Shown here: piece by piece, positions 14,524-50,229 of the stretch
Layout: every line of letters begins with the position of its first letter
Position numbering within the stretch: position 1 is the stretch's first letter
DNA from: Psammoneis japonica
Lineage: Eukaryota
NCBI GenBank assembly: GCA_008632985.1
Contig: QPGO01000086.1
Location: forward strand, 62,001 to 126,000
Length of the DNA: 64,000 bases
Reading direction: 5' to 3'
Made by a program: the position numbers and the translations under genes
Notes under the pieces: generated by a model
The model's database searches: none
Seen by the model: the letters and a program-made list of their open reading frames with translations, nothing else
Told to the model about the DNA's origin: nothing

Positions 14524-14894
14524 GACACTTTTCTTCTGTTGTCGTTCAACCTCTGGAATTGGAGGTCGTAGTCAGTGTGGTGCTGATACAACTGTAAGAG
14601 TACAGAAAACAGTGACAAATCAAGGACAACATTTACTACGATGGTCGATGTGGTCTCGCATTTCGTTCCTCATTTTTTTCGTTTGTTTCGTTTGACGGTC
14701 ATTGAAGTGATTGACACTTTCCGATCTTTGGACAAATACCGCCAGCTGTAGCTTTTTTGTGTGCTTGTCTGTGTTTTGATGCCGCACTGCTGGCTGCATA
14801 AAAAAATGACGGTCGCTGTCTGTGTGTATGTGCATGCCATCGCTACGAAACACCGAAGGGGATGCACCATTGCCCAGACGTCTTCCAACCATAC

Positions 14895-27436: not shown

Positions 27437-28740
27437 ATGACATCCCTTGTCCTGCAAGATTCACCGTCTGAACTACAGAATGCCTCCGACGTCGAACCTC
27501 AGGGAAGAACGTATGACGAGAGATTAAAGAATGAGCCAGGCGCTATTCGCATTGACGACCTCGTCCTCGGCATGAAACTGGCAAGCGTCGCCATTACCGA
27601 TGACAAAGAGGGAACGTTGGCAAAAGTCGGTAAAAGCAACCCGTGGCACATTGAGGCCCTCAAGGTTATAACTGGGTCGGAAGAAGAAGCTCACAAACCC
27701 TTGTCTCGCATTCTGTCAAAGCACTTTGGTTTGGAATGTGATCACCACATTGACGTTTCTGGATATAGTAAGGCGGGACACCCTCTTGACACTCAGGATA
27801 CATTGCACATAATGATGAAATGATTGTACTTGCTTTTCGATGTACTACGTCGGGAAAGATTGGCTCACCAACCTCTCCACTAGTTCGAGCGAGTGGGAAC
27901 CGGAAATCGATATTCCACAAGGCCATTCGGGGCACTTTAGTTGTCTCCAAGGTCTGTGCTGCGAGGATCAGTACAAGCCACGGGTGCACACTGGGTTTTA
28001 CAACAATTTCTGTTTCAGCTCCTCTCCTGCAAAAGTACATTGACCCGCTTCTTGCACCAGACCAACCGCCCCGCAAACTATACGTGGTGGGGCACAGCCT
28101 TGGCGCTGGTATTGCAACTTTGGCGGCATGCTACTTTTTGCTGGAGCACCAATGGCAAAACCTTCCTCACAAGCTTATCCACATTACAGCAGGTAGTCCT
28201 CGTGCTGTCCGTGGTGGCATGCGTGATATTATCACGGAGAAAATGAACACATTGCGTCCCCTAGACAAGGCTGTCATTTGCCGCATCGTCCGTGATCAAG
28301 ATGTGGTATCTACGGTGCCTCCTTCAGTGTTTGGCTTTGTGCACCTTGATACACTTGTTTTCATAACAAGGGATGGTGATATTCTGATCAATCCTGAGCT
28401 CGATGGAGACATGGGTGATGATAGTGAATTGAACAAGCTTCAGCTCTTGGAATCAGACACCGAGACGGATATGTCGGAGGATGAACGCGATAATCCCAAA
28501 GAGGGAAAAATGGAGAAGACAGCTTATGAGAAGAAGGTCTCTATGATTCCGCGCGCCCTTAGGGACCACATGCCTGATTTCTATCTCAAACCACTAATTG
28601 ACGTGTTCGAGAAGGAGAACCCTCCCTCGATGGTAAACAAGCTGGAAGAAGAAGAAGGTTCCGCAATTGATCCAATTGAGAGCCCCAAGCGCAAAAGAAG
28701 GTTCAAATTCTTTCGCCGAGGGAAAAAACGTATCAGTTAA
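27437..28740 (+). CDS. Class 3 lipase, split by frameshifts (about 27795, 27855, 28010)
   Basis: IVLAFRCT, DWLTNL, VHTGFY, VGHSLGAG, DVVSTVPP and DH motifs distributed across three frames. Confidence 0.8.
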
Positions 28741-28888
28741 GATCAGTAGGTGTGTTGAAAGGGCATGGTACAACTAACGCAGAATGGAGACGCATCATAG
28801 CATCTACACTGTAAGCTCAGCGTAGTTTTTCAATTATTACATGCATGCTTTTTATCGAGCAATCATAATCACATCTTCACAGACAGCC

Positions 28889-28954
28889 GGGGTTAGGGTT
28901 AGGGTTGGGGTTAGGGTTGGGGGGTTACGTTAAGGTTAAGGTTAAGGGTTAGGG
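28889..28954 (+). repeat. Interstitial telomere-like (TTAGGG)n array, degenerate
   Basis: ggggttagggttagggttggggttagggttggggggttacgttaaggttaaggttaagggttaggg. Confidence 0.85.
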
Positions 28955-29029
28955 ATGACAAACCTTTGAAGAGAAGCGTAGGCCCTATTGCACTGATCGT
29001 CTCACTGATTTTCGCCAACGTCATTATAT

Positions 29030-31570
29030 ACACGCTGTTCTGTGTGCGCTGGAGCTGAGTTTCAGCAAACAGAGCCCAAGCTGCACACTCAATGTGGACC
29101 ACCAAGAGAAGTGCAACCTTTTTTCCATGCAGAGCACACTGAGTCTTCTTTGTGCACTCTGTTGCCTCTGTTGAGTGCCAGTGCACACATGTCATTCAAC
29201 ACATTGTGGCACATTTCGATGCACCAGCAGCGCTGTGCGGTTCATGGTGTGCGGCAGTCACAATGGTGCTCAGCCAGCACAATGCCACTCACATGTGCCG
29301 TTTCATTGGCTGTGACTGGAGAGTGGCTTGTGGTTCAACTGCTGTGCAGCTGTGTTTGTGTGTTGTGCAAGCATGTGCAGCCCTTGTTGTGCATGACCGC
29401 AGCACTTCTGTGTCATTCCTGCAGCATGCCAACATGGCTCAGCATCAAAATGCATGGCAGCAACCCAAGTTTCCTGTGACACTTTGCTTTGTTGTGCCAC
29501 TCTGCCAGAGTCAAACCTCTCATCTCCTGCTCCCAAGCATGGATCTGTGATTTGGTTGCTCAGCTTTGGGGCAGCACAGCATTCACACCAGCCATCTGGA
29601 AATGACTGCAATCATCATGCACCATTTTTGTTCATCATTGATGCAAGTTCATTCTCACAGTGCTGGCATGATGAGACATGACAAATGCATGGTTGTGTGC
29701 ATGCACAAAGCAAGCACATTCATTGTTTTTGACACCATTGCAAAACACTCAAAATTTGACATGTGATGTCTGCTGACCCTGCTGACAGGCACACTGCACT
29801 GCTTCCACCAGTTGGTGCCAAGCATGGCAATGACAGATGATCTTTCAGAAACAACCCTGGCAACTGGAGTGGCCTTAGAAATGCAGAGACCTTGCACAGG
29901 GGCTCTCCATCACATGCACTCAGTGAGAAGAAAAAGTGGAGAGGGTCAGAAATGTCTGAGATGAGTCAACCACAAGAGGCCAAGGCTGTCAAAGCTGTGC
30001 CTTTCCAACCTGTTTGCAAAGTGGCTGGTGTGAGATTCAAGAGCCTTGTGATTTGTGTCTTGGACATCGTTGCAAGGGGGGGGGGTTCACCCCCTGCTTT
30101 TTGGCTCACTTTTGCCCAAATGGATTGAATTCTTCAGATCAGCATCTTTGATGATTGTCACAAGGCAGAGGAAAGGGCAACACTCAAAAGAAGCAAAAGT
30201 TGGAGAGCTGATGCTTGACTCCTGTGATTTTGACAGCTGTGACAGCATCTTGCTGCAACAGCAGCAGAAACATTGTTCACTCAATTGCAGCAAATCAGCA
30301 ACATCCAGCATCAGCAAGCATTGTTGAACTGCACAGATTTTTTGCTGTGGACTCAATGATGCCTTTTGTGCTCTTGGAGCTCAACATGTGGTTTGCCCAG
30401 AGCACAGGCCTGAAACAATTCCTTTCAGTTGCCAGCGCCCTTGATGAATGGTGGTTGGCAGCAAACCAACAACGCTTGGAGCTTCTTCTTCTCAGATGTC
30501 AGATGTCCTCATCCTGCCAAAGCTCTGCCCCAAACCTTTCATCTTGTGTTTTGCAAATCATTGCAGCAGTGTTTTCTGTTGTTCGTCCAAGTGTGCTTTG
30601 TGAGAAAACAAGGAGCAACAGAGTGTGAGTGTGACATGGATGTGTTGCAAAAGGAGTGATGGCACCATCAAACCAAAAGCACTGAAAGCGTCATCTCTTC
30701 AGACCAATCCCCTTGCCCCGCCAAAACTCTGTTGAGACTTTTCATCTTGCAACTTGAGGCATTTGGTGGTGCTTTTCTGTTCTTTGTTTCAGCACACTCC
30801 ACAAAAAATGAAGAGTGTCAGCACAGTGATGGTGCTTCACAAAAGGTTGGTGGCAAACCAAACACAATGACGAGAGCAAGTCTCTTCTCAGACAATGTCC
30901 CCACAAAACTCCTTTTGGGGCTTTTGACCTTGCATGTTGAGGTTTGTTGTCACATTTCTGCACACCTTGTCTGAGCATGCCTCACAAAAAATGAAAAGCA
31001 ACAGAGCACAAGCATGGCATGGATGCACCATGAAAGGGTGGCAGCAAGCAGCAAACCAACAGCACTGGCACCTCATTCTCAGATGTTCTTGCCCTGCTGC
31101 AACTCTGAGGAGCTTTTCATCTTGTGTCTTGAGCTTTTTGTGGTGCTTCTTTGGCTCACCTGAAGCAAAAAACAACAAAGCATGAGCACAACCACTTGTG
31201 CATGTCACAATGGTGCAATTCTTCATGCACGGCATGTGGCATCAGCAAACTTTTGGCGTGCGTGCCACACGCACCTTTGAAACGTGAGGAACACAAAACA
31301 AGCAAAAGTTGGCAGATGGATCACCTCCATTGCACTCACCTGGATTGTCCAAAGTCACCATTGTTGCCATGTTGCAAAGTGCGCGAAATGTTTTTTCAGC
31401 AGAAAATCACGAGCCAAATTGGCCAAAATTCGAGCCATGTCATCTGGCCTGTGCCAGTGTTTGGAAGACGATCGACAATGGCCAAACTGAAAATGGCACA
31501 GTGCGGCACAACTCGGATGTGTCACTGTTGAAAGGCACTGAGATTTTCAAACCACAGCGCAGTCGACGGA
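29030..31570. repeat. TpA/CpG-depleted decayed block C
   Basis: About one TA (near 29876) seen in ~2.5 kb; decayed internal ~190-bp repeats at 30460-31135; a segment homologous to 41215-41338. Confidence 0.85.
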
Positions 31571-31739
31571 TGGGTGTCTTAACTATCCTTTCCACTATTT
31601 TTTCAATCAACATTTGTTTTGTCCTTTTAATCTTTCATATTCACTATACCTTTTACAGGGGCTTCAATGGAGTTATGATGCTGGAATACTTTCATAACTC
31701 TTTGTGCCCGCATCACTTCTGCAGCTCAATCCAGGCATC

Positions 31740-33231
31740 TTACGAGCTAGGACAGGCGTCTCCTCGAAACGGAAATTGAATGAAGGATGGCCACCCAACC
31801 ATCTCGACAACTATCGCCATTACCTCGTAAATAAACAGCAGCGTGAATGCAATGATGGTGCCAATGCCATCTCGGGTGAAGGCCCACAACAGTGTCGGCA
31901 ACTCCACCCACAAAACAGGACTGAGCGTCCATACCAGTCGTTGCGCCCGGGACATTCTACGCCTTAGTTCCGGGTTGTCCAAATCTTCTCGACAATAAAA
32001 ACATGAATGACAACAACCACATGCCATTCTTGCCAGAACTACAATTACGAGAGCACCAATCACCATCACGATAGAGATGAGAGTGTCAACTGTGCCGTTA
32101 GAAAGTGAGTTTGTCGACGTTGCTCGTACGGCGATCGCCCCAGCGCTGTCGCGACGGTCATTGTCCATGCAGCCGCAGTACTCAAAAAATCTGCCAAGCC
32201 GTTTCGGTTACGAAACAAGTCGTGCTCCCTCGTTGCCGCACCCTCTCGGTTGTTTCTCCCCACGCAGCATGGGATCAAGAGAGCAGCCTCTTGCTCCTGA
32301 ATTTTCTCGGCTCTCACACAAAGAGCCCATGTAGTGAAACACCAAGATACTGCCTGGGTCAATATTGCCAAATGCCAACTTGCGACGTCCGGTGTGCTGA
32401 CGGGGAGGATCTCGAAATCCTGTGCTTCACCTGCACCTGTGAATAAAGTTTCACCAGAGGAAACAATGAGGCTCGTCAAGAGCCCGCCACCCGAGAAAAC
32501 GATACCGACTGCTAGACTACACCAGTGATCCTTTTGTTTCTTTTTGTTCTTTGAGACAACAAGCTGGACCAGAGCTTGTGGAAAAATCACCATAATTGTA
32601 CCTACCACCGCAAGGCTTGTCTGTGTCTCACAACGAATTTCGATTTTGTCAACCGCATCTTGTTTGGCGATACAGTCCGATGAAACGAAGGCTATTACGA
32701 TTCCACCAATGGACACGGGCGTCATAACTAGCGGTATGATAGACCGGAAAAGCTGCGTTGCGATTGCCTCTTCAGATGTTTCTTCATCATCACTATTATT
32801 CATGGTGGCATTTGAGACAACGGAATCTTTTGTTCTTCATCGTTTTCTACAGTAGGATCCAGCTTGATTGTCACGGGAATGTCGGTGCATATGGATAGAG
32901 ATGCTGGCATTCCAACGGAAGCTTCACATGATGCCTCCAATTCCGGATTTCTACGAGTATCCATCGTTTCCTCTCGGCGAGGGATGACTGGGCGCTGAGT
33001 TTCATCCGTGTCCTCCTGTCCTCCTCTTTTAAGATTCTTTGCACGAGTTGATCTGTTCATTGGTTTTCGGTGTGGCGGCATAACTTGAAGTTGATGGTCT
33101 GTATCTTCTCGGCGACTACCAGCACTAGTAGCTGATCCTCGTGTCGATCGTTGTTCTTCATATCCGCTTGTGTCATTCCGGAGGAGTCGACTATTATTGA
33201 GAGATTCATCTTGTACCATTTTGTTTTGCAC
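31740..33231 (-). CDS. Hypothetical membrane protein, probably one gene split by frameshifts
   Basis: Three abutting minus-strand ORFs (32800-33231, 32066-32803, 31740-32168): a hydrophilic N-terminus followed by several TM segments. Confidence 0.5.
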
Positions 33232-33572
33232 TCATGGGCATCGCAATTCATCATCAATGATCTTGTGCTGGAAAGTTCTATGGCGCACCTCAATAACTGC
33301 AAGATTTGCTTGCAACTTGCAACCGAGAGCAAACACGACCAAACAATCGCGGGTCGTGCGTCGCGGCTCACGCCGCCCGTCTTGTTCCTTCTCCTGCGGC
33401 TCTCTAGTGCTGTCTAGAGATCTTCTAGTGATGGACTGGAATGGCTTTACTAGCGGATGCGCAAGCCTCATTCCCAAAAACCCAAGCTGGAACGGCAGGG
33501 CCTTCCAGTGCCACCCACAGTGCCATGCACTCTTGGGAGGGTGGATGGGTTGAGGCTGGAGGGCTGTGGTGA

Positions 33573-34600
33573 TCAGGCGTCTTGAGGATTCTGAGGGACG
33601 TCAGCATTGGGGTGGAGGACGAAGTTGCCACCGGCAAGCATGTCATGAGCGAAGTTGCGCATGACTGGTTCTGCTTGCAAATGCAGGTGTCGCAACATTT
33701 CGTCGGATCGCCAGCGGCCTGAGAGCCGAATGAGATCGGTGTCAACGCAGGCACAAAGGAGGGCCATTGCCCCAGCGGCACGAAGACACCGAGCGGCAAT
33801 GTCTCGGGTGGTGAAGCCGAGATTAGCCGGACTGAGAGCAGTGACAGCATTGCAAAGCATGCTGGTGATGTCGGCTGGGGACACACGACGCCAGGTGTTG
33901 TTTTGAAAGCAAACACCAAGGGGTGTGTCAGGGAGCGCACCATGGGTGCACAAGTGTTGGACACGGCGGATGAGGGTTTGAGCCGGGCACAGGTGAGGGT
34001 GACCGGAAAGACCCAGCCCCAGAACTTTGCCTTGCACTCCATTTTTCTGGGTGGCAAATGTGAGAGTGGCGAAGGTTGCTGTGTCAAGGTGTGCAAGTGG
34101 AGCTTGCATGGTGACAAGACAAGCACCACCGGACGCAAGCCGGACGTCGGCGAGACGAAAGGGGGTGGTGTCGGATGGTGTTGCGGTGCATTTGCCAGGC
34201 CACAACAAAAAGAAAAAGGTGAGTGCAATCATGTCAGCAATGGCTTGTGTGCCCGGGTCATTGCTGAGGGCTGCGGCGGTCATAATCCACTGCAGCACTG
34301 CAATTGGGACAGGTTTTACGCGGTCTGGGGGTGGATCCTGCTTCTTGTAAAAACGGACTTGCCGGGTGAGACGGAAATCCATTGTGCCTTGGGATGTGTG
34401 GCGCGGATCCGGGGCCCCCATTGCAGCAAACATTTGGCCAACCGAACGTGCGGCATCTTCTCAGCGGTTCTTCCACGGACGGGATTGGCCATCGGCGCGA
34501 GGACTCCTGTGCGGCATCGGTGCAAGAAGACTTGGAGGAAGACAACGGGGTCGTCAACGTCTTTGAGGAGTGGGTCGATGGCCAAAGAGGAGCAGAACTC
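33573..34600 (-). pseudogene. Tyrosine recombinase of the retrotransposon, catalytic Arg and Tyr lost
   Basis: FFFLLWPGKC (expected LLRPGEY), TQKNG, LCP, ARCLRAAGAMAL, GRWRSDEMLRHLH (expected RYLH); overlaps the RNase H frame. Confidence 0.85.
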
Positions 34601-37000
34601 TCACCATTTGTTCCAATGGGTGTTGGCGGCAGAGGCTCGGGAAGAGGTGACACCATGCTGGACGGCATGTTGAGCAGCATTGAGATCACGCATGAACTCA
34701 GCTCTGGTGGAGGCATCCAGAGACACCAGGAGAGTTTCTGCGGATGGCAAAAATTAAAATGGCACAGGAATTCATGGTTGGATAAAGACTGCAGGTGGGA
34801 GGCATCGTCAGCGGCAGTGTCGAGGTGTCCAGGCAAGCAGTCATGCAACCCCAAGCAGTGATGGCAGCGTTGATGGTGGGATTGGCATCGAAGCAACCGG
34901 GAGGCGGGTTTGACGGTGGTGGCAGCACGTTTACATTGCCAATGCATGGTGCCTGAATTGTCGGTGTGTGAAAGGTCAGTGTGTTCACGGATGTCAAAGC
35001 AGTTGGCGGCGCCGCAGGACTGGATGACACTGCCGGCAAGTTCTGGGTCTGTGTTGGTGATGGGACCTCGCGGGTTGGAGAAAGTGGAGAGTTGACTGCT
35101 GACACTTTTGGGAAAAGGCAGTCGCCACACTGCGGGACCCGCATCTCTCTGTTGACAGTGTCGGCAATTGCCGAAACAGAGAGTGGCTGCTCCAGGTGCT
35201 GTGGCACTGGTTGGTGGAAGGACGCCGCCTGCGCCGTGACCTGCAGCATCATGACAACCGGTGAGTGTTGGTCTCAGTGGGACCAACTCTTGAGTGCAAA
35301 CGGGTCGGGTGTCTAGGGTAGATTCTAGATCCCGAAAGTCATCCAGTGCGCTGTGCGCAGTGGCGGAGATCCGGACGCATGAGTCCGGCGTGGCATGTCG
35401 GAGATTTTCTTGGAGTGCTGAGAAGAGACCCCGGGAGCCGGGCATGGCAATGCTCAAAGAGCGCAGCTCTCCCAGCAGCTTCTGACAATCAGAGACGGTG
35501 GCACGTTCACGTGTGTGGAGGAAATCCTTGTGCAGCGTTGTACGAAGTCGGGCATGCCGACAGGGCATGAGCCGGATGGTCATGGCGCGAGCATCTGTGA
35601 GCCATCCCAGACGTGTTCCAGCTCTAGGTGGGACCTCGCACTGCTGAACTGTGACACAATTATTTTTTATCACCCGTCGCATGTTTCGCACGTACATTTC
35701 TACGTGTTCTATTATAAAAAATTGTTCCACACTGCCTGTTTTGCGAAGCCAAAGGCTTTCTGTTGTCTGCACTTGTGTCAATAAAAATGCGCTGGGTGTG
35801 TTCTTTAATGTCTAAAGAGTGTGCCCGGGCATGCTGTAAAGAATGCACTTCAAGTGTGGAGGAGGAGATGCGTTCGCAAAATTGCCTCTTTTTCTGTTGG
35901 CGATCATTCACACATCCATTGCTTGACAATTTTACTGTGGAGCTCGCACATAGAATTCTGCGGGCCCAATGTCACAAAAAGTCCCACCTGGGACTGGAAC
36001 CCGTCCCCAGGACTTCTTTCTGTGTGGACCATGTGGCATCACCCTGGCGGAGCTTCTTGACGGAGATGGGCTCCTTGCGGGTGGCTGGGTCGTGTGCATT
36101 GAGTGGGCGAAAGACGTCATCGAGAGCGTGCAGCATCACACGGTGGACGTTGCGCCGGGCTCGTTTGGATCCTTGCGCAGCACCAAGGAAGTCATCTGCA
36201 TAGATGTCGATGCATTGCAAGCGGCGGCACTGACGCGGTCGAAGGTGTGGGTCAGGCGTGTCAGGAATGGGCACGGCCTGTGAAGCTGCGGCAACTTGTG
36301 GTGGTTGGTGCTTTGGCGGGCGGCTGTCTAAGAGCGCTTCCAGCGGATGTGGCGGCGCTTGGACATTGTGCACCAAATCCAAATTGGTGACATCGGCGAC
36401 AGTTTCCGTTGATGTGCAGAACAATGGCGGGGAGTTGGCCCAGCCCACAGGCAAGCGTGTTGGAATTGCAACCAATGGTGGCTCTCCCGGTTGGTTCGGG
36501 AACACCACACCAAGTGCAGGAGCCTGTTCTGGTGCAACTTGCATGCGGCAACAACCATCGGCCAGGTCTATCTTCACAAGATAGACGGTGCCTTTTTTAG
36601 GATCGGCAAGGAGGATGCGGCGTAGAAGGCAGTCAAAGGCATGTCCAAATTGCATTGCTTCCATTGCAGCATTGGGTTGCATGGAAGTGTTCAGCCCACA
36701 GCAGGTGCAGTCCACGATGGGACAGGGACGTCGACCATGTTGAGGCACAACGCCAATTGGACTTGGGCGAAGACCGGGGGTGTGCTGCACTTCCTCGTGG
36801 GGGGCAGGGGGACGACAACCCAAAAACCTTTTTCAACCATGTCAGCCATGTCTTGGCGCAAAAACTCGATGTGTTCGTAGGCGGATTTGTGTGGACCCCT
36901 GGAGATGCTAGCGTCTAGCTCAGCATGCGTCCATGGTGCATCGGCGGCAGTGATGGGGGCACCTCGGCACTTGCAAGTGCTCAGAAGTCGATGAGCTGGG
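34600..37000 (-). pseudogene. Reverse transcriptase-RNase H of the retrotransposon, interrupted by a MITE
   Basis: SPIGVVPQ, KIDLADGCCR, RLPVGWANSPPLFC, IYADDFLG, KEVLG/WLTD, GCHDAAGHGAGG, ITNTDPELAG, ADDASHL. Confidence 0.88.
35610..36005. mobile_element. 396-bp MITE nested in the RT gene
   Basis: 25-bp imperfect TIR gacgtgttccagctctaggtgggac / gtcccacctgggactggaacccgtc; TSD ccca (35606-35609 / 36006-36009); removing it restores the RT peptide KEVLG-WLTD. Confidence 0.88.
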
Positions 37001-37239
37001 TGTTGCTTGACTCGATGGAGTGGACCCCAATCGCCTACGACGCAGTGGCGCAGCATCAGTTTGCATGTGCTCACCCAATTTATCATCAAAGATTGTGGCA
37101 GCAACATCCTGTCCACGGGCAGTGGGGCGGGTGCACTGCCTCTTGAAACTCTCCACAGTCGGGGGGTTGTGGACGCGACAGCGAATCGGCCATCGCGGGT
37201 GAAGGCTCTCGGCTCCAAGTCCCTGAACTTGGGCCGTTG

Positions 37240-39150
37240 CCGAAGACCTGTTCGGTCTTCCAGTTCTCCTCACCCCAGGTGAAAAGGGTGGCCTGTTCGT
37301 CTTCTGTGTGGTCATTGCGATGATCACAGGACGAGCCACAGTTGGTGTCACATTGCCCTTTGCAATGGTGGGGGAAGCAATGAGGGCGACCTTGGGCATC
37401 TTTGGGGAGGTCGATGTTGTCCCTTGCTCATCGGTTTTTGACATCGCGTGACCTGATGTTGGGGCAGTCACGGAGCGTGGCAAAGCGGTTGTCGCAGGAA
37501 GGATTGCGGACCACGCTGTTGCTTCCTGCAGCTTGGCTGTCAGGGGCCATGTTGTTGGCAGGCTGGCGTTGAGATGCTGGGGCCGGTGCGGCCCCCAGCA
37601 CAGAACTGGGGTTGGCAGCTTGCATGCCAGCAGGCAAGTGCAGACGCCAGTGGACGATTCCTTTAGCCACTTCAAACACAACGTTGAAGGGTGTGAATGG
37701 TGACGGGTGGAGTGAGGCTTCTTGAGCCTTGAACCAATGGCGAACTTCAATCTGCACATGGTGTTGAAAGTCCGCGGGAAGAGTTGGGCACCAAGTGGCC
37801 TGTGCTGCCAATTCATTGGCATGCCGGTCCATGTCTTGACGTTGACGGGTGAGCCACTGGACAACTGGATGGTTGGCCCCAAGCGAAGCAGAAAGCACCA
37901 GACGGCATCCATCGCACAACTGCTGGGCGGCTTGCATTGTCGTTGCCATGAGCGCCTTGTCTGGAGCTTCCAGGATTTGAGTGTCCTGGAGGGACGGGGC
38001 CGCAGTGCCGCCATGAATGTGCACATGCATGGCCTTGCGGCAGGCAATCTGTTCAGCACTGTCTGGTGCAGTGATCCCAAATTGGAAGGGGGCGATGCCT
38101 TGGGTGGGCTCGTCTTGATTGTGACCAGCAAATTTGAGCTGCACGAGCTTGGTGATGAGACTGACGGCAACAGGTGCGTCGAAATGGACGGCCATTGCCT
38201 GGCGTTGCTCGTCAATTGCATTTTGGACAACTGCCAGGCGGCCTGTCTTTGGCAATGCGTGGGCGGCAGTGCCATCTCGTTGAGGACGTGGCACCAATTC
38301 ATGAGCTTGGTGACACCGAAAGGTCCCCAAAATTTGTTGGGCACCTTGCCCCGGGCAGCTGCTTGCTGACGTGCTGCAGCATCAAGTCGAAGTTGGCATT
38401 GCTCAGTGGTGAGCCCTTCAATGGCTTGTGTGACCGGCTGGAAGTGCTGCGCAGTGGGTGGCGCATGGCCCAGTCTCCCAGGGATGTCACGCGACACCTT
38501 GGCATCAAAGAATTGAATGAGGGCTTCATTGGGGGGGTGTGTCATGACAGGCCAAGGTCGTGTCACAACAGATGCCATTTGGTTGTTGGCAATGGCACAG
38601 CAGGCGACGCGAAGAAAATCGAGCTGTGGTTGAATGGCGGCCACTTTGTTGGCTGCTGTGGCGGCGCCGTGCACCCGCTGATGGGCTTGTTTTGGGTGCA
38701 AGGGTTGTGCCAACAAGAGCGGCACAAACTCAAATGGCACATGCACCGCGTTCCCAGTTTGCACAACCTCTGAATTTTGTGCATTCTCAGCCAGATGCGG
38801 ATGCAGGCCGTCCGCATTGTTGGTGACATGCTCCAGGAGTGCAGCATGAGTCAGCACCCTAGTCCCCTGCTGTGCTAGATTGAACGAGTCGTCTCCAAAT
38901 TCGACCAGAGTGAACTGTCCACGGGTTAGATCACCTGCCATTGCATGCGTCTCACTGTCCCAAGGTTCGGCGGGCCCAACCACGGTCATCGGACAAGTGG
39001 TGACGCGGTGGAGGACTTGAATCTGTCCTTCGTCCGCTGCACCAGCCTCTCAACAGTGTGCGATGACTGCCATCGGCTGATCATGACTTAACGCCGCTGC
39101 AACTCGCCCATGTGGTGCCTGGTCGGAGAATCGAACTCCGGTCAACTGTC
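37240..39150 (-). pseudogene. Gag-like ORF1 of the retrotransposon
   Basis: Long frameshifted ORF upstream of RT, ending in a Cys/His knuckle (CFPHHCKGQCDTNCGSSCDH at about 37320-37380). Confidence 0.65.
39113..39140 (-). other. tRNA 3'-end-like fragment (T arm, acceptor 3' strand, discriminator A, CCA)
   Basis: Minus strand reads CGGAG-TTCGATT-CTCCG-ACCAGGC-A-CCA with canonical spacing; no matching 5' half. Confidence 0.5.
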
Positions 39151-40294
39151 CAGCGGCTTCTTGCTCTTTGTTGCTCTTCGGAAGAATGAGTGAAACAAGT
39201 GAGAGAAAGGAGCAAAAAACTGTCATTTGCTCGCCAAGCTCGCGCAAGCACGTTCAAATTTGAATTCAAACGGTTTGCATGACCCAATGGTCAAAAACGG
39301 GTCATTTGCCTCGTCGCACTGCACAAGGTGGGTCGTGTGGTGGAGGTCACGTTGGGTGCCTGTGGAGCCTGAAGACGCTGGTCAACAGTGGCCAAATGGT
39401 GCAATTTGGATTTGTCGCTGTTGAAAGGTGCTTAGATTATAAACAACAGTGGGCATTTCCATCATTTGAAGCTCGCTGTGAAATTGCTTGGTGCGCCACC
39501 AAAAGAAGAAGAAGAACTCAGCCTCAACATGGGCTTTGTGCAGCGCCCCCTTTCTCACGGGGTTGCTGGAGTGGCCGCAGCTTTTGTTTTTCTGTGACAT
39601 TATTGGAGACAGCTGCCTTGATGTTGGCTTCTCCAATCCTTTGGCTTGCCATTGTTTTGCACCCAAGGAAGCTTCCGGGGTCAGCAGGGCAGTGATCACA
39701 GACAAGCATCGCGTTGCTGTCATCCTCTTCACTTGCTGCAACAACCCATTGTGCAGCGGCCATCTTGCCATGCTCAAGGAACACCTTGCATCATGGTGAG
39801 ATTCACAGGGTGATTTTCTGGGTGATTCTTGCTTCTTTCAAAAGCACTGCAATGCTCAGTTGGCTTCTTGTCTTCGTGAGTGTGGGCAGGCCTTTGCCGT
39901 CGGCGCTTGCCGTCCTCTTGGAGCCACCGCCAGAGGAGCAGCAGGAGCTGCAGGTTGGTTGTTGTTGCACCTGTCTTCTGCCTCCAGCAAAGCACCTCCA
40001 CAAGTGCGTTGCACACTGCTGATGCACAATGAATGAGTGAAGCCAGTCTGAGCTGCTTCTGGGCTGAACAACAGAGTCGTTGCCTCACTCTGTTTTTCTC
40101 GTTGACGCTGCCACTGTCGTTGGTGGAAGAAAGGGCTGCTCTCTGTGGTTGAGCAGCATTGCTCATCTCAATGCAGCAGCTTCCCAAAAGGACATCTGCT
40201 GTCACAACCACTGCCAGCAGCAAGACTGCTTTCTTCTCAATGGGCGGGCGGGGTTGGCAAGCAGAGCAAAACAGAGTGAGTGTCTGTGGGCACG

Positions 40295-40807
40295 TCACAA
40301 TGTGGTGAATGTAATTTTTTTTGCATTGATTGTTGACAAAATCTGTCATGCACATGCTGGCCAATTTTGTTCTCCAACATCAAATTGCAGCTGCAAAACA
40401 GCTTTCATTTTTGCTCTTTTTTGGTCATCGCACACGTTGCTCTGCACATCTGCTTTTGGACAAATGTGCCTTTTTTGCATGCTCAGCTGTTTTTTTTTTT
40501 GCAAAGCCCTTTTTGCCTTTGTTCTGTTTGAAGTTGGTCACAATGTGGTGAATGCAACATTTTTTGCACTGGTTCTTGACAATTTTTGTCATTGTGTGTC
40601 ATCTGTTGTGCACGTGCCAACCAACTTTGTTCTCCAATGTCAAGAAGCTGCAACTGCAAAGCAGTTTTCATTGGTGTTGTTCTTTTTTGGCCATTGCACA
40701 CATTGCTCTGCATCCATTTTTAGACAAATGTGTCTTTCACATGATGTTCAGCTGTCTTTTGCAATGCCCTGTGCTTGCCTTTGTTCTGTTTTTAAAATTG
40801 AAGTTGG
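40295..40807 (+). repeat. Diverged tandem duplication, period 243 bp
   Basis: tcacaatgtggtgaatg...gcctttgttctgttt..gaagttgg starting at 40295 and 40538. Confidence 0.8.
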
Positions 40808-42020
40808 CTGCCCTCACTTCCTCCTCCCCACACACTGTTCACATGTTGCTTTTTTTGTGCCCCCCTTCACTGCAAAATCTGCATTCCTGCCTTTTCAATG
40901 TTGCCAGTTCTTTTGCCACAAATCATCAGCACTTTGTTTTTTCTTCATTGACACATTGCTCCTTTCTGCACAATTTTCAGCACCATTGCTGCACACACAC
41001 AATCACTTGCACACTTCACACCAGTGCACCGGCTCCTCAAACTTTGAAAAACAAGAGTGCATGCTGCTGTTGCAACTCACATGGGCGGGTTCTGTGCATT
41101 GCCTCCAATCAGCAACTGACCATGGCAGTGACCAACTTCAACCCCCCCACCCCTTCAGCCAAGGAGGAGGTCAGCCCTGATCCTTTGTTTGCACCCGGTG
41201 ATGAGGTTGATTTGGTGGATGGACTGCCTCCATTGTGCTTGTCTGGATCATCTGAAGCAGCCATTGTTGCCAAATTGCAAGTGCAGCAAAACATTTTTTC
41301 AGCAGAAAATTGCAAGCCAAGTTGGCCAAATTCAAGCTAAAGAAAAGCAGAGACCAAGCTTGACCACCCTTGAATGTGATGGCAATGTTTGACATCAAGT
41401 GCAGCACCTGCTCTCTGCCCCATTGTTGCCAAGGCAAGGCCAAGGCAACAAAACAACATGATGCCTTTGCACCACCTGAAATGCACCAACATCACAGGGC
41501 ACCAATGAAAAGATGAGTGTGAATGGAGGTTTGGCAAGCTGTTTGAAGACATGGGTGCAGCTGGGCTGATGCACACAATGCCAAAGAGCACAGCACACAA
41601 AGCCCCAGCTTTCATGCCTCAGACAAATGATGGGGCAGCAGGTTGAAGGCTGAAAACAGATGATGCGTGTGTCACCAGCCTGCACAGGAAGGCAAACAGA
41701 AGCTGAATTGGGCTGCCATCAAAAAATGTTTGCAGCACAAAAATGCCTCATGATGCCACAATGCTGCTGCTCAAAGTGTGCTCAAGAGAGGCCGCTGGGG
41801 AGCTGCCACCCACAACAAAGCAGACGCCAGTCAAAGGGCACTCACAAAAAAGCAGACACCAGTCAAAGAGCACTTTGTGTTTCCATGCACAAAGATCAAA
41901 GTGCACAATGGGAATCATTCGAAAATGTCGCGTGGGTCACAACCAACATTTTGCACGAGGAAAAACACAAAATCGTGTAGAAATGCACACAATGTCACAC
42001 GAGAGAGTGACCAGAGCTAA

Positions 42021-42134
42021 TGACTTTTCGGGAACTGAGTTGAAATGCTGTCTGATTGACTGCATTGGCCTTCACCATGTGAGTCAAAATGCCGTCAATC
42101 AGACAGCATTTCAATTGATTTCCCGAGAAGTTGA
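42021..42134. repeat. Long imperfect palindrome (~46-bp arms)
   Basis: ttgaaatgctgtctgattgac and gtcaatcagacagcatttcaa are exact reverse complements within longer imperfect arms. Confidence 0.85.
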
Positions 42135-43992
42135 CATTCGCACACGGATGGATGGACAGACTGACGGCAATTGTTTTTAGTGCTCTCCTGCACAATTTCT
42201 GCGTGATGACTCTCAGGACCCGAATGACTCCCATTGCCATGTGGCAAATGTGGAAAAGAGTGTGCAAGTCAAAGACGGGGCAAGTGGAGAGTTGAACGTG
42301 TGATGTCATGCAGCAAATGAGCTTTGTGAAGGAAAAGAAGGATCAGCTTGCAAGGCTGAAGCAGCACAAGATGGCAGCAGCAGCAGAAAAGGAGGCAATG
42401 GAGATGTGAAAATGCACGCCACAGCTCTCTCCTCATTTTCTGTCTTTTTTCTTTGTGCTCCCAGACAGCACTGGCACCAGCAGCACCACAATGCATGAGA
42501 TGATGCATTGTTTGCAGCAAGGTGCAAGAGACAACACTGTTGACACCAGCAGTGGCACCAGCACCTGCGTGCAACAGCTGCTGCAGCGGTGCCAGAGCAG
42601 CGCCCAGGGCAGGAAGAGAGACACCAGAGCTACTGCCAGCAATGCCATCACTGGCAATGGCGCCTTTGCTGGCAGCAGCCACTGCTCATGTCAAAGAGGG
42701 GGGCATGAGTGGCACCACCTTTGTCACCTCCACCACCAGCCAGCAGCACTTTGCTGGCAGTCAGAGCTTCAAGCACGGCTGGAACAATGACTGTTGCAGA
42801 AGTTTTGTGCCCCACAGCTCTCACATGCCTTTTTCCACTTTGCCCTGAAGCTGTGGCATGGTTGCCAAGCCTGTGCAAAATGAAAAGAGACAGCTGAATG
42901 ATGCCACCACACATTGTCACCAAACACCTTCTTGGACCAGTGGTGGGACTGCCCACCATCCAGCTGCAGCTCTCACTTGCAGGCGGTGTTGGGACAAACA
43001 TCATGGGATGTGCTGCTCCAGGCAACAAGGCACTGTCTTGTTTGCAGGGTGCTGCTGCTGATTGCACAAGAGTGTTTGTTTTCAACAAATCAACATTGCC
43101 AGGAAGAAGCCTGCCTGTGGCTGGCAAGAGCATCACTGCTGTGGGTTGTGGTGCACTGACTGTCATCCTCCTTGCACCCAGATTGAGGTTGAACATTGTC
43201 CCCTGCAGCAGGTGCTGGCAGTCATTGATGCAATGCTTGAAATGCTGTGGCAACCAGCAGCACAGCACAAGAGAGCCTGGAGAAGCAGCAGCTTCACAAT
43301 CTGTTGAGAGTGCAGTTGATGTCCCATCCAGTGTGTGCTGTTTTTGCCATTGCCAGACACTGGTCTCACATGTTTTCACACACTCTTTCAACAGGGGTGG
43401 GCAACAATCTGTGAAGCAGCAATGGCAACTCAGGGATGCCATTGCTGTGGAATGTTCAAATGGGGTGCATCACAAGTGCTTCCCATTTCTTTGGCATGAC
43501 GACAAGTCAGTTTTTGACAAAGAGGAGGAGGCAGCATGTGCCAGCAGGGGTTGGCCAAACAGTGCAGCAAAGGGGTCATGCCAATGCAGGGTAAACAGCA
43601 TGTGCAACTGCAACACAGCCTCATTTTTAGAATTTTGCTCATTCCACAATGTATCCCATTCCCTCCAGCTAGACATCATGGCGCATTTCGACCTCAGCTG
43701 GGAATGTCAGCACCTTGGACCCCGTTTCTTTGTTCGAAATCATGGAATCCACAAACAAAATGCGGCAAGGTGAGTGTCGAACGAAATGTGAAATAAATGA
43801 CCTCTTTTGGCTCTTCAAATGATGTCACGGAATGCCATGGTACCAAGATTTTTTTGGAATTTGGGTTCATGTCGCTGTTCGATGAGAGACGGAACATCTC
43901 TTTTTCCCCGTCTTGTCCCGTTTTCATTTTATTTTAGGTATTTTCATCAGGTATGCAAATATGTACACTATTATGCAGTATCAGCTCTGTGT

Positions 43993-45838
43993 CTAGTTTG
44001 TTGCCACTCGTTTCCGTTTGAATTCATCACCATCCTCACTTGGAGGTTGGTTTTGACGGCGAACCCGCTTCCGCATCCATGTTTCTGGATAGAAACCGTC
44101 AGGCACTCCAATCTCGTGCCGAAACGCATTTGGTAAAAACATGTCTGTCGTGTACGGACGATCAGTGATGCGCAAGGCACGTTGAGGAATGTCTGCAACG
44201 ACGTAAGAATGAGACAGTTCGCACAAGCCTGGATTGCTTGTTGCGTCCTCCTTCAGAGACATTCTCGCCTTGTAGTATTGAACTCCGCCCTTTTCGTATC
44301 GGTCAAGAATGGTGCAGGATCGGAGACAAGTAGCATAATTGCTATGAGTGTCCCATGTCACAGTGTCTTCCTTGTTTTTGCTGTTCTTCAACTCGTTTGG
44401 TTCGTCAAAGAAGCACGCGGTTTGCAAGTTGCTGTGATAAGGATTGCTCGCTTGTTCCGTCGCTGTTCGAAAAGCTGGCGTCTCGCGATTCATGCGTTCA
44501 AACTCCGAGAGCGATACATACTTATCATCCTTTCCCTTGTATTCCTTCACATGTTTCTCCCATGCCTGGCTCCAATCACTTCCATAATCAATGAATATCT
44601 CTTCGTTTGGCTCGATAGGTCTCAGGCCACAATGTCCATCATGAGCCCCATACCGTGAGTCTTTGCCACGGTACTTGCTGAAAATGCGAACAATTCGGGA
44701 TGATGGTATTGCTGCCTCCGCGATAAAATGTCGTTGCTAAAGTCGGGGTTCTTATTCTCGTGCCAGCGAATTTTGGCATTTGCAGCCTTGTTCTTCGGGG
44801 GGTGATTGACATAGTTCACCATGGGTCCATAAGGCAACAGCAAGAGGTCCGAGTTGGGGTGACCATAACAATAGTTCATGATCAACTGCTTGGATGGAAT
44901 GTCGTGTTTTCCTTCATTATCAACAAGTACTTCATCGCGATGCATGGGAATCAGCGGGGTGGAGGTAATGATGCTTCCCTTTTCCAACGCTCGCTTGGCA
45001 AACAAACCCTTTCCCACCTTGGGTACGGTAGTCTCGTCGACACGAATATTGTTATCGAGACAAACCACCGAATCGTCGTTTGTGCTGAAACGTGACAAAT
45101 AGTAAGCACCGCCGTCAAAATCATCGTCGCTGCATTCAACAGTAAGTTCTTCTCCAGGAACAATGTCCCGAATAGCTGTGTAAGTTGCGTTTTGGCGATT
45201 CGCAAACGACCCAGCAGTCGGATCCCTTGAACGATGAATATCACCGCTTTGCGAGATTACATCGTGACGCATGGTGGAGGTCGGATGAAGCTCTCCTTTT
45301 CCAGTATACTCCATGTTGTAGTTCTTGGAAGTGCACGGGACAATTGCTGCAGCACCAGGGATAAACAAGAACGAGCTTTCACCCGAGTCTCGAGAGGCAC
45401 TTCTGGCATGTTATCGCCATCCCATACATACTCTCGTAGGGGCGGATGATCCTCATATAAAATCTTGGAATCGAAAATCGGAATGACAAGCTCCGCTCCA
45501 TAGAATTCGAGTTCCACAGAAGCTCCTTTTGGAATGTGACGACCGGTGAACATTCCCAAGCCAAACCCGTGTTCTTCCACTTCCTTAATAGGAGAAGGAC
45601 CGAGCCACATGCCACATTTCGACTCGTTTTCATCCTCTTCGTTGTCAATCCTGTCCACATCGTCCAGCACAACGGTCGCTGCTCCTTTCTTTATAGGGCA
45701 ACTCCCGCCTGCACAATCATCATCCGAGGACGAGTTGTTATTGCCGGCGGCAGCAGCCTCTTTTGTCGAAGCAACGCTAAGTCTACCACTAAGGAGTAGA
45801 ATAGCCAGAATCAAGGCTGTTGGAAGCAACCGCATCAT
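43993..45838 (-). CDS. Signal-peptide-bearing tandem SET-domain protein, frameshifts near 45380 and 44622
   Basis: Signal peptide MMRLLPTALILAILLL; GLGMFTG..AIRDIVPGEELTV; GKGLFAKR..YVNHP..RPIEPNEEIFIDYG. Confidence 0.8.
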
Positions 45839-46170: not shown

Positions 46171-47318
46171 TTAGGTATCTTTGCTGCTTTTCTTGGCTCT
46201 TATTTCGACGCATGTCTTTAGGCGTTTCACCAGGACTTCTCGAGTTCCATCTTGCTCTAGACCGCGCTTTTTGAGACTTGATCGTAGGCTGCTCACGTCC
46301 TTTTGGTCAATGTTGAAATCGTCCTCCAAAGCCAAAGGAGGCGTCCAACAGGCTTTCAAAATATCCGCCATAATCTTGCCCGACTCCTCGAGTTTAGAGT
46401 AACCCTCTGATTCCATAACTTTTGAGCGATTATCGATAATGAACTTTATGGCAGTCTCCTTGAGCAAGGCGCAGCTCATGCTGTCTGCATAAAGAAGCAG
46501 CTCCGACACAGTATCCACCGAAATGGCTGACCTTACAAGTTCAGCTTCTGCCAATAGTTTGAGAGAAGCACAATCAAACTTGTTGGCAACTTCTAAAAGG
46601 GCTCTAGCGTTCTCTTTGAGGCTCATGCTGAATGGAAGACAATCTTGGTGAACAAAAGTCAGGAGCCCCGAAAAGATGTCGGCATCCACGTCTGGGATTG
46701 GAATCGCGGTACCACGGGGAACATCCTTGACGAGACTGGCAAGAAACGGAGCCCGAATCTTGAGAGCAAATTCATTTCCACCAAACTGTCTTCCGGCAAC
46801 GTCAAACGTAACGTCATGAGCATTCTCAGACGAGAAGAATTTCAACCAGTCGGATTGAATCGTGTTGGTTGGACACACGGGAGGCCTTTCCTCGTCCAAC
46901 TGTAGCGTCAGCGACACTTTGAGGGCTCCTCGATCCAAGTGTTCTGAAATTTCATAACACTTAATGAACCGATCAACCCTAGATAATTCCATTGTCTGAG
47001 GAGGTGGGAACTTTTCCCGTCGACACTGACATGCGGCTTGGTGGAAAATCGACATTTGAATCGAATTTCGTCCGCACTGCAAAGTGTCAGCCGAACCGAT
47101 ACCCACTTTTTGCCATATCGAAAACGTCGACAACCGCCTGGATACAAGGATAACACCCACGATTGTCCAATGCACTCAAAACGTTGTGTCCTTATGAAAT
47201 TTCCAGGTTTCCGTGGCAGAGACTCGAAATCAGGAAACACAAACCACTGGCGTTGAACACCATCATTACTCGAGGTCGTTTGCTGCGAATCTTGACTGAG
47301 CTGTTCGTTTCGCATCAT
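46171..47318 (-). CDS. MATH-BTB protein with C-terminal SAP-like motif, frameshift near 46990
   Basis: FECIGQSWVLSLYPGG; HDVTFDVAG..ALKIRAPFLA; VSSLRSSLKKRGLEQDGTREVLVKRL. Confidence 0.8.
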
Positions 47319-47435: not shown

Positions 47436-47858
47436 ACGTTTGCACCGGTAGGTAGGTTTGTAGTACGCAATTCTCTGCTTCGAGTTTTGGAGGGACCAGG
47501 GATAGTTTGAAGTTTGAAGACAGTTAGATGCCAAGCACGAACGAATCTCTACGACTGTTCAATACAAAGTTTCTATCGCTTTCTTGTTCTAGTGAAACAG
47601 GAAGTATCTCGCATTGACTGCCACCCTGTAGGAAGAGCACTCAAAATTTACCCGAGAGTGGATCTTTCACCCAATTGGATCCAGTTCCTGCGGCCTTCAT
47701 GTACTTTAATGTAGACCAAAGATTCTGCCAGATCCAAGGGTAGTACACATACTGAACATTGTGCTTCTTGCATATCTCACGAACCGTTGGAGCAATAAAG
47801 GGGTACCAGGCTGAACTCATGCGAGGGAACAAGTGGTGCTCCACCTGAAAGTTGAGTC
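47436..47858 (-). repeat. Near-identical second copy of the desaturase 3' end and flank (matches 48521-48945), ending at an N
   Basis: Same peptide LNFQVEHHLFP...DPLSGKF with a few SNPs and indels; N at 47859. Confidence 0.85.
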
Positions 47859-48438: not shown

Positions 48439-48727
48439 AACGAACCCTTTAAGTAATGAAATGACCCCTATAAGTGACGAAACGTCATCACCGACCGTCT
48501 GACCCCCCTGCTAGCCAGTTACGTTTGCACCGGGAGGTAGGTTTGTACGCAATTCTGTACTGCTTCGAGTTTTGGAGGAACACCGCGGATAGTTAGAAGT
48601 TTGAAGACAGTTAGATGCCAAGCACGGACGTTTCTCTACGACTGTTCAATACAAAGTTTCTATCGCTTTCTTGTTCTAGTGAAACAGGAAGTATCTCGCA
48701 TTGACTGCCACCCTGTAGGAACAGCAC

Positions 48728-50229
48728 TCAAAATTTACCCGAGAGTGGATCTTTCACCCAATTGGATCCAGTTCCTGCGGCCTTCATGTACTTCAATGTA
48801 GACCAAAGATTCTGCCAGATCCAAGGGTAGTACACATACTGAACGTTGTGCTTCTTGCATATCTCACGAACCGTTGGAGCAATAAAGGGGTACCAGGCTG
48901 AACTCATGCGAGGGAACAAGTGGTGCTCCACCTGAAAGTTGAGTCCACCCGTGATGCATCCCGCAACAAACCCACCATAGGTGCAGGAGGTCTCCACCTG
49001 AGACTTGAACCAGCAAACCTTTTTGTTTCCGTCACGAGCCGCGGCGGTGGGATCGCGGTCGACGTTTTCAAAGTTGTGCGAGAGAGAAAAGGGAATGGCC
49101 AAGGTCAAACTCTCGACAACGCCCATGAGAAGAATGTATCCGGCAGCGAGAAGTGGTTCGTCCTTGAGGTGGTAAAAGGGTGCCACAACATTGGTCAGAA
49201 TGTAAAGCAGCCTCAACATGACGGCGAATTTGCGTCGAGAAACGACAAAGTTACTCTCGAACTTCATGCCAATGCTGCTGGCACCACGCTGCTGCAAATC
49301 CATAATCTGGGGGTTGAACACCTCGGAAACCCAGTATCCAGCGAGAACGAGGGGATAGTAAAAGACCTGGAACCTGTGGTACCACCGGCGAGAAGGATGT
49401 CCGAGAGGATAATCGTTAAAGAGCATCATGGGCTCAGCACCGTAGCTGTCGGGATCCTTCTCACAGTGGTTGGTGTAAGAATGATGAGTCCAGTGCTGTT
49501 CGATCCATAGCCACTTGCTACCACCGATAAAGTCAGCTCCGAGACCCAGGAGATCATTGATGCGGTGATTCTTGGAACAAGCTCCGTGGTTGGCATCGTG
49601 CTGAACATTGAGACCGATAAAGGCCTGAGACATGCCATACAGCACAGCAAGCCATAGAGAAGGACCAGAAGTTACCCAAATGTACTGAAGGCTGAAAAAG
49701 AGACCAATGTAAAAGACGGCACGAGTGTACCAGCCGGGGGTACCAAACTCCTTGCCCCGATTCACAATCTTGAACACTTCCCTCTTGATTTCTCTTTCAA
49801 AGGGGGTGTCAAACTCGTACCTGAACGTAAAAAAAACAATAGCAACGGGCTGTGAGTATCTTATCGATTCACTTACGCCTTAGCACAGATAAAGGACACT
49901 GGTTTCTTCTCTTTCTTCCAGGTCTATACTCACTCGGTTTCATAGTCAGCCACTTTTCCTACACGCTTCATCTTTTCCAAATGATGCCTGGTGTGGTAAG
50001 GATGAATCATTTTGTATTGAACAGTGACGTCGTTTCCGCCAAAGACCTGAATCGTATCACCACCCGGATGGTCAAAGTCCTGAATATCATAAATGATGCC
50101 GTCAATTGCAATCTCGTGGTTCTTCAAGGTGGACATGGTGCAGATGCGTTCCTGCTCGGCGGCAGCATCCTGAACAGCTTCCTCGCCTTTTGCTTTACGC
50201 TGGCGGAGAACATCGGCATCCGGCGGCAT
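48728..50229 (-). CDS. Front-end fatty acid desaturase, delta-5 type; intron 49821-49933; 462 aa
   Basis: Cytochrome b5 HPGG; His boxes QHDANH, QHWTHH, QVEHHLFP; spliced junction EYEFDTPFEREIKREVFKIV resembles diatom delta-5 desaturases. Confidence 0.92.

Follow-up and report, generated by a model that had tools for sequence, protein, structure and literature searches.

Paired TpG and CpA gains in TpA-depleted blocks, including a dead DIRS-like retroelement, point to hypermutation of resident DNA

The 64,000-nucleotide stretch of DNA analysed here (the window) contains a dead, DIRS-like tyrosine-recombinase retroelement on the minus strand at 33451-39713 (ends approximate), from which the dinucleotide TpA has largely disappeared. 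The question raised by this locus is whether its TpA sites were converted in the RNA of the element, before reverse transcription and integration, or in DNA that was already resident in the genome. An earlier note on this DNA had taken the second position, on the grounds that both TA to TG and TA to CA changes occur on one coding strand and that blocks with no recognisable retroelement are also affected. Both observations held up in the analysis described here, and we conclude that a host process acting on resident double-stranded DNA has very probably converted TpA from A:T to G:C in selected blocks of this window.

The whole window contains 2,039 TpA in total, and their distribution is strongly uneven, with 32-42 per kb in the flanking genes (observed/expected ratio, o/e, of 0.49-0.60) versus 0.4-7 per kb in five blocks. 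The longest TpA-free runs in the window measure 1,704, 1,196, 961 and 847 bases; by hand arithmetic, the chance of a 1,704-base gap at about 0.037 TpA per base is approximately e^-64. Inside the blocks, TpA has an o/e of 0.01-0.12 and TpG plus CpA stand at 1.4-2.0 times expectation, while ApT, ApA and TpT show no comparable loss, i.e., the depletion is restricted to TpA and comes with a matching gain of TpG plus CpA. The borders between the blocks and the flanking genes are sharp within about 200 bases. The two halves of the retroelement have a TpA o/e of 0.11-0.12, a CpG o/e of 0.69-0.73 and a GC content of 57.5%. In contrast, the 16 related metagenome loci that we fetched for comparison have a TpA o/e of 0.60-0.92.

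When 2,844 coding bases of the element were compared on the sense strand with 23,922 aligned coding bases of its relatives, the element was found to have lost 24.0 TpA and 15.0 CpG per kb and to have gained 23.8 TpG and 26.9 CpA per kb, with the TpG gain and the CpA gain each present in all three codon phases. These losses and gains come out approximately even. The same two outcomes are seen at the level of residues. We used tblastn to align 112 homologous proteins and 102 open reading frames (ORFs) of the related loci with the element, and read off the residue held by the majority at each codon. At the 16 codons where at least half of the relatives have Tyr, the window has nine TGC (Cys), four CAC or CAT (His), one TAC, one Leu and one Phe, which in 5' to 3' order read C, L, H, C, C, C, C, C, H, C, H, Y, C, C, H, F. 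The relatives themselves, counted over the 1,035 cells of these 16 columns, have 75.9% Tyr, 6.1% Phe and 2.9% His, and Cys lies outside their eight commonest residues. A stricter pass, restricted to columns with 15 or more homologs of which 60% or more agree, left nine Tyr columns, of which the window has turned six into Cys, two into His and one into Leu, keeping Tyr in none. Where Arg is conserved, the codon in the window specifies Cys in 11 cases, His in seven, and Trp and Gln in one each.

The individual changes singled out in the earlier note were all recovered when set against the relatives. The proposed Tyr to His change at 33687-33689 falls on a codon that is CAC in the window and Tyr in 7/7 relatives, and it corresponds to the catalytic Tyr in GRWRSDEMLRYLH of the recombinase. 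A CTA to CCA change had been suggested near 35045, and at 35044-35046 the window indeed has CCA (Pro) where 109 of 116 relatives have Leu. Similarly, for the GTA to GCA change suggested near 36198, the codon at 36197-36199, within the Y-V-D-D box of the reverse transcriptase (RT), is GCA (Ala) in the window and Val in 105 of 121 relatives. Changes of Leu to Pro go through CCA in both of the two cases found, and changes of Leu to Ser go through TCA in three of four.

The two products are interspersed along the DNA. Runs tests on the order of TpG and CpA gave z scores of +0.45 and +0.16 for the two halves of the element and of -1.56, -1.72 and -0.18 for other blocks, and the heterogeneity of TpG versus CpA across 200-base bins had p values of 0.16-0.81 in the five blocks tested. 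Strand-coordinated patches, as expected from a processive single-strand deaminase, were looked for along the five blocks and not found. A single-strand process can be excluded.

The signature also extends to DNA in which no retroelement is recognisable. The block at 29030-31580 retains one TpA in 2,551 bases, with a CpG o/e of 0.21 and a plus-strand TpG:CpA count of 302:315, and the block at 39714-43592 retains eight TpA in 3,879 bases, with a CpG o/e of 0.20 and a plus-strand TpG:CpA count of 444:475. A Pfam search with the 79 ORFs that reach 70 aa in the non-element blocks gave no family above noise, the best match having an E-value of 0.009 and all matches lying far under their cut-offs.

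Degenerate repeats within these non-retroelement blocks provide a further record of how single sites were resolved. Three repeat pairs found with BLAST (574 aligned columns, 111 mismatches) contain 18 adjacent swaps of TG for CA between copies; shuffling the columns of these pairs yielded a mean of 1.6 swaps and a maximum of seven, with none of 5,000 shuffles reaching 18. Recoding the sequences in a two-letter purine/pyrimidine alphabet raises the identity of the repeat pairs from 73-77% to 91-96%, the E-values of this two-letter search being uncalibrated. Further repeats in 30446-31153 that ordinary BLAST missed became visible, at 82-86% identity, only with transitions ignored. Repeats in TpA-free DNA are recoverable only in this manner. 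With a transition-tolerant alignment, four repeat pairs together show 159 transitions, 37 transversions and 36 TG/CA swaps, and one of them alone (30518-30779 versus 30904-31153) accounts for 70 transitions, 18 transversions and 16 swaps. Intermediates are present in the four aligned pairs as well, four of the CA/TA or TA/TG kind and 12 of the CA/CG or CG/TG kind. Such swaps are expected when two copies resolve a self-complementary ancestral step, TpA or CpG, independently of one another. Taken together, the presence of both products, the involvement of non-retroelement blocks and the swaps between repeats place these changes on resident double-stranded DNA rather than on RNA, which bears out the symmetric genomic lesion that the earlier note had proposed.

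The identity of the element itself was assessed from its ORFs, its relatives and a predicted structure. On the minus strand, its ORFs follow the order gag-like, RT (frameshifted), rest of the polyprotein and separate recombinase, over a length of approximately 5.7-5.9 kb when a later insertion resembling a miniature inverted-repeat transposable element (MITE) is left out. The gag-like ORF (36920-39049, minus strand, 709 aa; Tyr 0.0%, Cys 3.4%, His 4.4%) yielded weak matches, at 28-30% identity, to three of the related loci. In the RT ORF (35972-36832, minus strand), YTFYG is now CTCCG, DGFYR is now DGCCR and YVDD is now YADD, and a frameshift splits the RT such that the conserved RGPHKSAYE...KGFW falls in another frame at 36691-37269. 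The rest of the RT polyprotein lies downstream of the MITE at 34258-35811 (minus strand) and contains the Leu to Pro change at 35044-35046, and the tyrosine-recombinase ORF (33573-34460, minus strand, 295 aa) aligns over its full length with seven relatives. The recombinase motif RYLH is present in 7/7 relatives.

A search with the RT ORF retrieved 112 proteins at E ≤ 0.001 among 3,912 candidates, the best being 67% identical; all 112 come from metagenome or run assemblies, and many have a precomputed match to PF00078. A second RT search at similar lengths added 21 relatives, the best 63% identical. Sister copies were sought in the same protein collection, where these best matches of 67% and 63% were the closest found and none came from the window's genome. 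Pfam run directly on the element ORFs of the window detected no family, and relatives score just below the curated cut-offs (RVT_1, 27.7 versus 29.6 bits for P0004 and P0005; Phage_integrase, 20.3 versus 27.1). The AlphaFold model of a recombinase relative, L001 (mean predicted local distance difference test score, pLDDT, of 72.5), retrieved Cre recombinase as its best Foldseek match (E 4e-5); at E ≤ 0.001 there are 22 matches, each of them to Cre or to a recombinase derived from it, and the remaining matches are to tyrosine recombinases or type IB topoisomerases. When the RT and recombinase alignments were used as profiles against PDB sequences, no matches were returned.

By these ORFs, motifs and modelled fold, the element is best described as a DIRS-like tyrosine-recombinase retroelement. 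It shares with the DIRS order an RT polyprotein with a Y-x-D-D box, which in the window reads IDIYADDF, followed by a separate recombinase of predicted Cre fold, with a gag-like ORF upstream. It differs from that order in that neither terminal nor internal complementary repeats were found in this degraded copy; the search of 33400-39800 covered terminal repeats of at least 18 bases, and their absence from a heavily mutated copy is weak evidence.

Two further features speak to the timing and the targeting of the process. CpG is depleted only where TpA is depleted, with a CpG o/e of 0.20-0.34 in the four non-element blocks, 0.69-0.73 in the element and 0.99-1.03 in the background; the relatives mostly have 0.8-1.07, with two lower. 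Measured against the relatives, TpA in the element is down by about 85% and CpG by about 30%. TpA loss thus runs much faster than CpG decay over the same territory, and this strict co-localisation suggests that what guides the process is methylated, silent chromatin.

The second feature is the MITE-like insertion of 396 bases at 35610-36005, which has 25-base terminal inverted repeats (84% complementary) and, by eye, an apparent 5-base target duplication. It sits within the RT frame, exactly after ...KEVLG and before WL..., two stretches that follow one another directly in the relatives. TpA is at a normal level in this insertion, with 14 sites, 35 per kb and an o/e of 0.49. This unconverted insertion either arrived after editing had ceased at the locus or was not a target.

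To compare the window with reads, we used contigs from one DNA sequencing run (X1, 2019), which contains 41% of the element's sampled words and is possibly the assembly's own source; no RNA run was listed as containing the element. Its contigs span all 30 bins of 28500-44500, and 659 of 4,467 aligned pieces have an identity of 99% or higher. The depth summed over contigs is not copy number and serves as a hint only; so read, it is 59-75 in the flanking genes, 67-87 at 29034-31169, 67-88 at 39714-43451 with one bin excepted, and 527-1,705 at 33306-39713 outside the two MITE bins (35442-36509). The bin containing the MITE (35442-35975) reaches 88,664, the bin with its end (35976-36509) reaches 11,903, and the excepted bin (41850-42383) reaches 6,775. 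These values hint at some ten or more copies in the family of the DIRS-like element and at a low copy number for the two large non-element blocks. With the high-depth MITE unconverted, copy number alone does not bring conversion, and the MITE and the low-depth converted blocks together argue against a copy-number trigger. Many contigs break at the MITE ends (loose ends at 35608 and 36002-36005), and a joint from 33502 to 39161 occurs in three contigs. One contig also links 35637 to 41906.

The other contigs differ from the window mainly by transitions, which make up 839 of 1,076 differences (A>G 241, T>C 198, C>T 203, G>A 197). Among the 40 of 1,077 differences that were listed, those in the element are mostly sites at which CG, shared by all the other contigs, is TG or CA in the window, and these are private CpG decay of the window copy. 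At 38429-38430, also among the 40 listed, the window has TG and the other genomic copies have CA.

The account that we propose is as follows. The target blocks would be foreign or repeated sequence, probably silenced and, we infer, carrying 5-methylcytosine (5mC). TpA is self-complementary, such that a change of the A on the top strand would leave TpG and a change of the A on the bottom strand would leave CpA; if every TpA site were resolved once and independently, the result would be nearly equal, interspersed TpG and CpA together with a near-total loss of TpA. In coding sequence, this would turn Tyr into Cys or His, remove TAA and TAG stops and destroy catalytic residues, disabling the retroelement. 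Most likely, an enzyme would deaminate adenine to hypoxanthine, which replication would then fix as G, and a slower change of C to T at CpG, typical of 5mC, would add TpG and CpA in the same blocks. Targets would be chosen by region rather than simply by their number of copies. At this locus the process appears to be over, with a later-inserted MITE having retained its TpA.

Several points weigh against this account. The ancestral state is taken from relatives that are 40-67% identical and not from sister copies. The ratio of Tyr to Cys over Tyr to His, 9:4, fits 1:1 (binomial p of about 0.27, hand arithmetic) and would also fit a moderate excess on the sense strand. Changes of Val to Ala go through GCA in just one of six cases, and the non-Tyr classes are individually ambiguous. 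The TG/CA swaps between repeats may derive from CpG as well as from TpA. The sequence has been confirmed by one run, perhaps from the same sample as the assembly, and our case is built on a footprint in the sequence and not on an enzyme, a base modification or de novo events.

That last point matters for the chemistry, since A to G on one strand is T to C on the other in a sequence footprint. A lesion of thymine, with T oxidised or hypermodified at TpA to a base of the 5-hydroxymethyl- or 5-formyl-uracil type that pairs with G and is copied as C, would therefore leave the same trace as a lesion of adenine. 5-Formyluracil is mutagenic towards T to C, and some protists replace T with 5-hydroxymethyluracil, preferentially at TpA. 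Nevertheless, we consider a thymine lesion unlikely, given that the one published account, a preprint on the alga Bigelowiella natans (Mettrop et al., bioRxiv 10.64898/2026.01.13.699255), leans towards an ADAT2-like deaminase acting on adenine, itself a proposal. A second alternative is that bases were edited in the course of retrotransposition, by an ADAR-like enzyme on the element's RNA or by a deaminase on strands of its complementary DNA (cDNA), with integration afterwards. This would suit a retroelement as the target, the commoner Tyr to Cys change (sense A to G, 9 versus 4) and the preference of ADAR-type enzymes for a 5' U given in the same preprint (bioRxiv 10.64898/2026.01.13.699255). 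We judge it very improbable, however, as the gain of CpA on the sense strand (+26.9 per kb) is at least as large as that of TpG (+23.8 per kb), the catalytic Tyr became His, the blocks at 29030-31580 and 39714-43592 carry the same signature with no detectable retroelement, and the repeats in such blocks were resolved independently.

It is also conceivable that no mutation took place and that modified bases in heterochromatin were systematically miscalled, with TA and CG read as TG or CA. Both palindromic pyrimidine-purine steps are altered in one and the same set of blocks, as would be expected of silent-chromatin marks, and the confirming run is perhaps not independent of the assembly. Even so, this artefact is more improbable still: the X1 contigs cover all 30 bins with 659 of 4,467 pieces at least 99% alike, copies differ at affected sites and the window copy has CpG to TpG changes of its own, TpA is normal in the MITE within the block, and frameshifts and transition-diverged repeats resemble long-term sequence evolution. 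The least probable explanation in our estimation is a native poverty in TpA or selection against it, arising for instance from codon usage or from the need to escape a nuclease that cuts at TpA. TpA is mildly low throughout the window (o/e 0.5-0.6), but the relatives have normal TpA and have Tyr where the window has Cys or His, catalytic residues are destroyed, and neither dead copies nor all six frames would be under selection. We also rejected biased gene conversion, which is not specific to TpA and runs against the CpG to TpG change in the same blocks, and a bisulfite-type conversion, which produces the wrong base changes. The conversion of TpA in resident double-stranded DNA by a host process thus remains our preferred explanation.

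The remaining TpA-depleted blocks and their contents are recorded here for completeness. A block depleted in both TpA and CpG at 1-1433, truncated by the window edge, has two TpA and o/e values of 0.02 for TpA, 0.25 for CpG, 1.95 for TpG and 1.85 for CpA. Inside it, degenerate tandem repeats of 33 and 163 bp (8-387) show seven TG/CA swaps between copies. A small CpG-poor block at 14892-15363, 5' of a short-chain dehydrogenase gene, has one TpA and a 471-base TpA gap, with an o/e of 0.04 for TpA and 0.34 for CpG. Within the block at 39714-43592, the segment of about 41850-42383 that had a depth of 6,775 contains a 109-base imperfect palindrome at 42023-42131. Of the 43 residual TpA in the blocks, 21 precede G (TTAG 8, CTAG 6, GTAG 5, ATAG 2) versus a background of about 23%; this excess may represent a context resistant to conversion or TpA regenerated from abundant CAG/CTG.

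GpC is elevated in 1-1000, 29001-31000 and 40001-43000 (o/e 1.3-1.7 versus about 0.9-1.25 elsewhere), and ApT is slightly lowered in places; a rise of GpC with a fall of ApT would fit TATA-like runs resolved to TGCA. A telomere-like array of 10.5 copies of GGGTTA at 28889-28954, about 75 bases before the start of the block at 29030, has kept its TpA, and such an internal array may mark the terminus of a linear element or a healed chromosome terminus. In 29000-31600 and 33400-43600, TAA and TAG have been lost and TGA is the only stop left, which gives long ORFs in all six frames, e.g., 370 aa at 40068-41177 and the 709 aa of the gag-like frame at 36920-39049. Gene finders would predict spurious Cys- and His-rich proteins in such TpA-free DNA.

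The window as a whole is eukaryotic nuclear DNA of about 47% GC with dense, long, uninterrupted ORFs that contain whole Pfam domains. At least ten of its genes have complete domains in single ORFs; the whole domains in the window are those of MATH-BTB and LRR proteins, two short-chain dehydrogenases, an EcKL kinase, a fatty-acid desaturase, a Popeye/cNMP protein, a tyrosinase and a class-3 lipase. A protein search with the desaturase returned a mixture of taxa, and one with a MATH-BTB protein returned one match, at 29% identity. BTB and BACK domains are present in the ORFs at 2170-3270 (with MATH as well) and 46174-47175, and 5840-6889 resembles 2170-3270 at the DNA level. An unannotated gene is present in three tandem copies of 67-83% identity at 60435-63610. 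A direct repeat of 428 bases (95.6% identity) lies at 47436-47858 and 48521-48945, and its first copy stops at the window's single N (47859), possibly an assembly join.

Among known systems, the decay of CpG through 5mC is the one that accompanies TpA loss at this locus. Its marks are shared here, in that the older blocks have a CpG o/e of 0.20-0.25 and Arg codons (CGN) have become Cys 11 times and His seven times. It cannot remove TpA, however, and would be the slower companion here. Fungal repeat-induced point mutation (RIP) is similar in being a dinucleotide-specific set of transitions at the DNA level, on both strands, that inactivates mobile DNA and leaves sharply bounded, skewed blocks. 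It differs in its product, as RIP changes CpA to TpA and enriches TpA and AT (stated as well in bioRxiv 10.64898/2026.01.13.699255), while at this locus TpA is erased. RIP is also triggered by duplication; here, blocks at apparently single-copy depth are converted and the MITE of very high depth is not. ADAR hyper-editing and APOBEC editing of cDNA share with this locus the clusters of deaminase-type transitions on mobile elements and, in the case of ADAR, a preference for UpA. They leave a one-strand signature in the integrated copy, either A to G or G to A, whereas here both directions are found and DNA other than retroelements is affected. The signature of RNA hyper-editing, with A to G on the sense strand only and in retro-copies only, is thus absent from this locus.

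The closest likeness is to B. natans, as described in the preprint of April 2026 (Mettrop et al., bioRxiv 10.64898/2026.01.13.699255). Mutation-accumulation lines of this alga had 302 new nuclear mutations, of which 231 lay in two regions of integrated viral DNA, including a giant-virus insert of 186 kb present in single copy. Of these 231, 230 were A to G or T to C, all at TpA. Its genome has 124 clusters that are poor in TpA and rich in CpA and TpG, and reverse-transcriptase and DDE domains are enriched among the TpA-poor coding sequences. Only some lines were affected, and an ADAT2-like DNA adenine deaminase was proposed. Both systems involve a change of A:T to G:C at TpA, resolved by strand into TpG or CpA, in sharply bounded regions, and in B. 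natans the activity is episodic and converts single-copy foreign DNA. In our window the target is mobile DNA in the case of the DIRS-like element, and the single-copy status of the other blocks is read from summed depth. The preprint (bioRxiv 10.64898/2026.01.13.699255) gives direct proof of a DNA-level process that this locus can only imply.

There are differences as well. The region of nucleocytoplasmic large DNA virus (NCLDV) origin in B. natans has 3.3% TpA, versus near saturation here, with 0-1 TpA per kb. The identified target here is a tyrosine-recombinase retroelement family, and conversion is known here from sequence and there from de novo mutations. CpG decay co-localises with TpA loss here, and the words 'CpG', 'DIRS' and 'retrotransposon' do not occur in the accessible text of the preprint. 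B. natans has on average eight introns per gene according to a table in PMC13746701, versus the long intron-free ORFs of this window, and the host is therefore probably another organism. In the literature that we searched, DNA hypermutation of TpA to TpG or CpA is documented only in one 2026 preprint on one alga, and this locus is probably a fresh instance in a new target class and probably in a new host. Hypermutation of A:T to G:C at the DNA level and specific to TpA would be a newly recognised kind of genome defence and, if the host indeed differs, the system is phylogenetically wider than reported and not a chlorarachniophyte oddity. We tentatively suggest, as a possibility below even chances, that in an intron-poor host other than B. 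natans such TpA editing represents a wider eukaryotic defence, a 'reverse RIP' that would be coupled to silent chromatin carrying 5mC, saturating on tyrosine-recombinase retroelements and unclassifiable foreign DNA, triggered by a cue other than copy number and possibly based on thymine chemistry. What this locus adds to the B. natans system is a view of the end state, with TpA erased, Tyr turned into Cys or His and catalytic residues lost in a retroelement, the shared territory of TpA loss and CpG decay, an argument against copy number as the trigger, and a relative clock, in which TpA has gone much faster than CpG and the later MITE is untouched.

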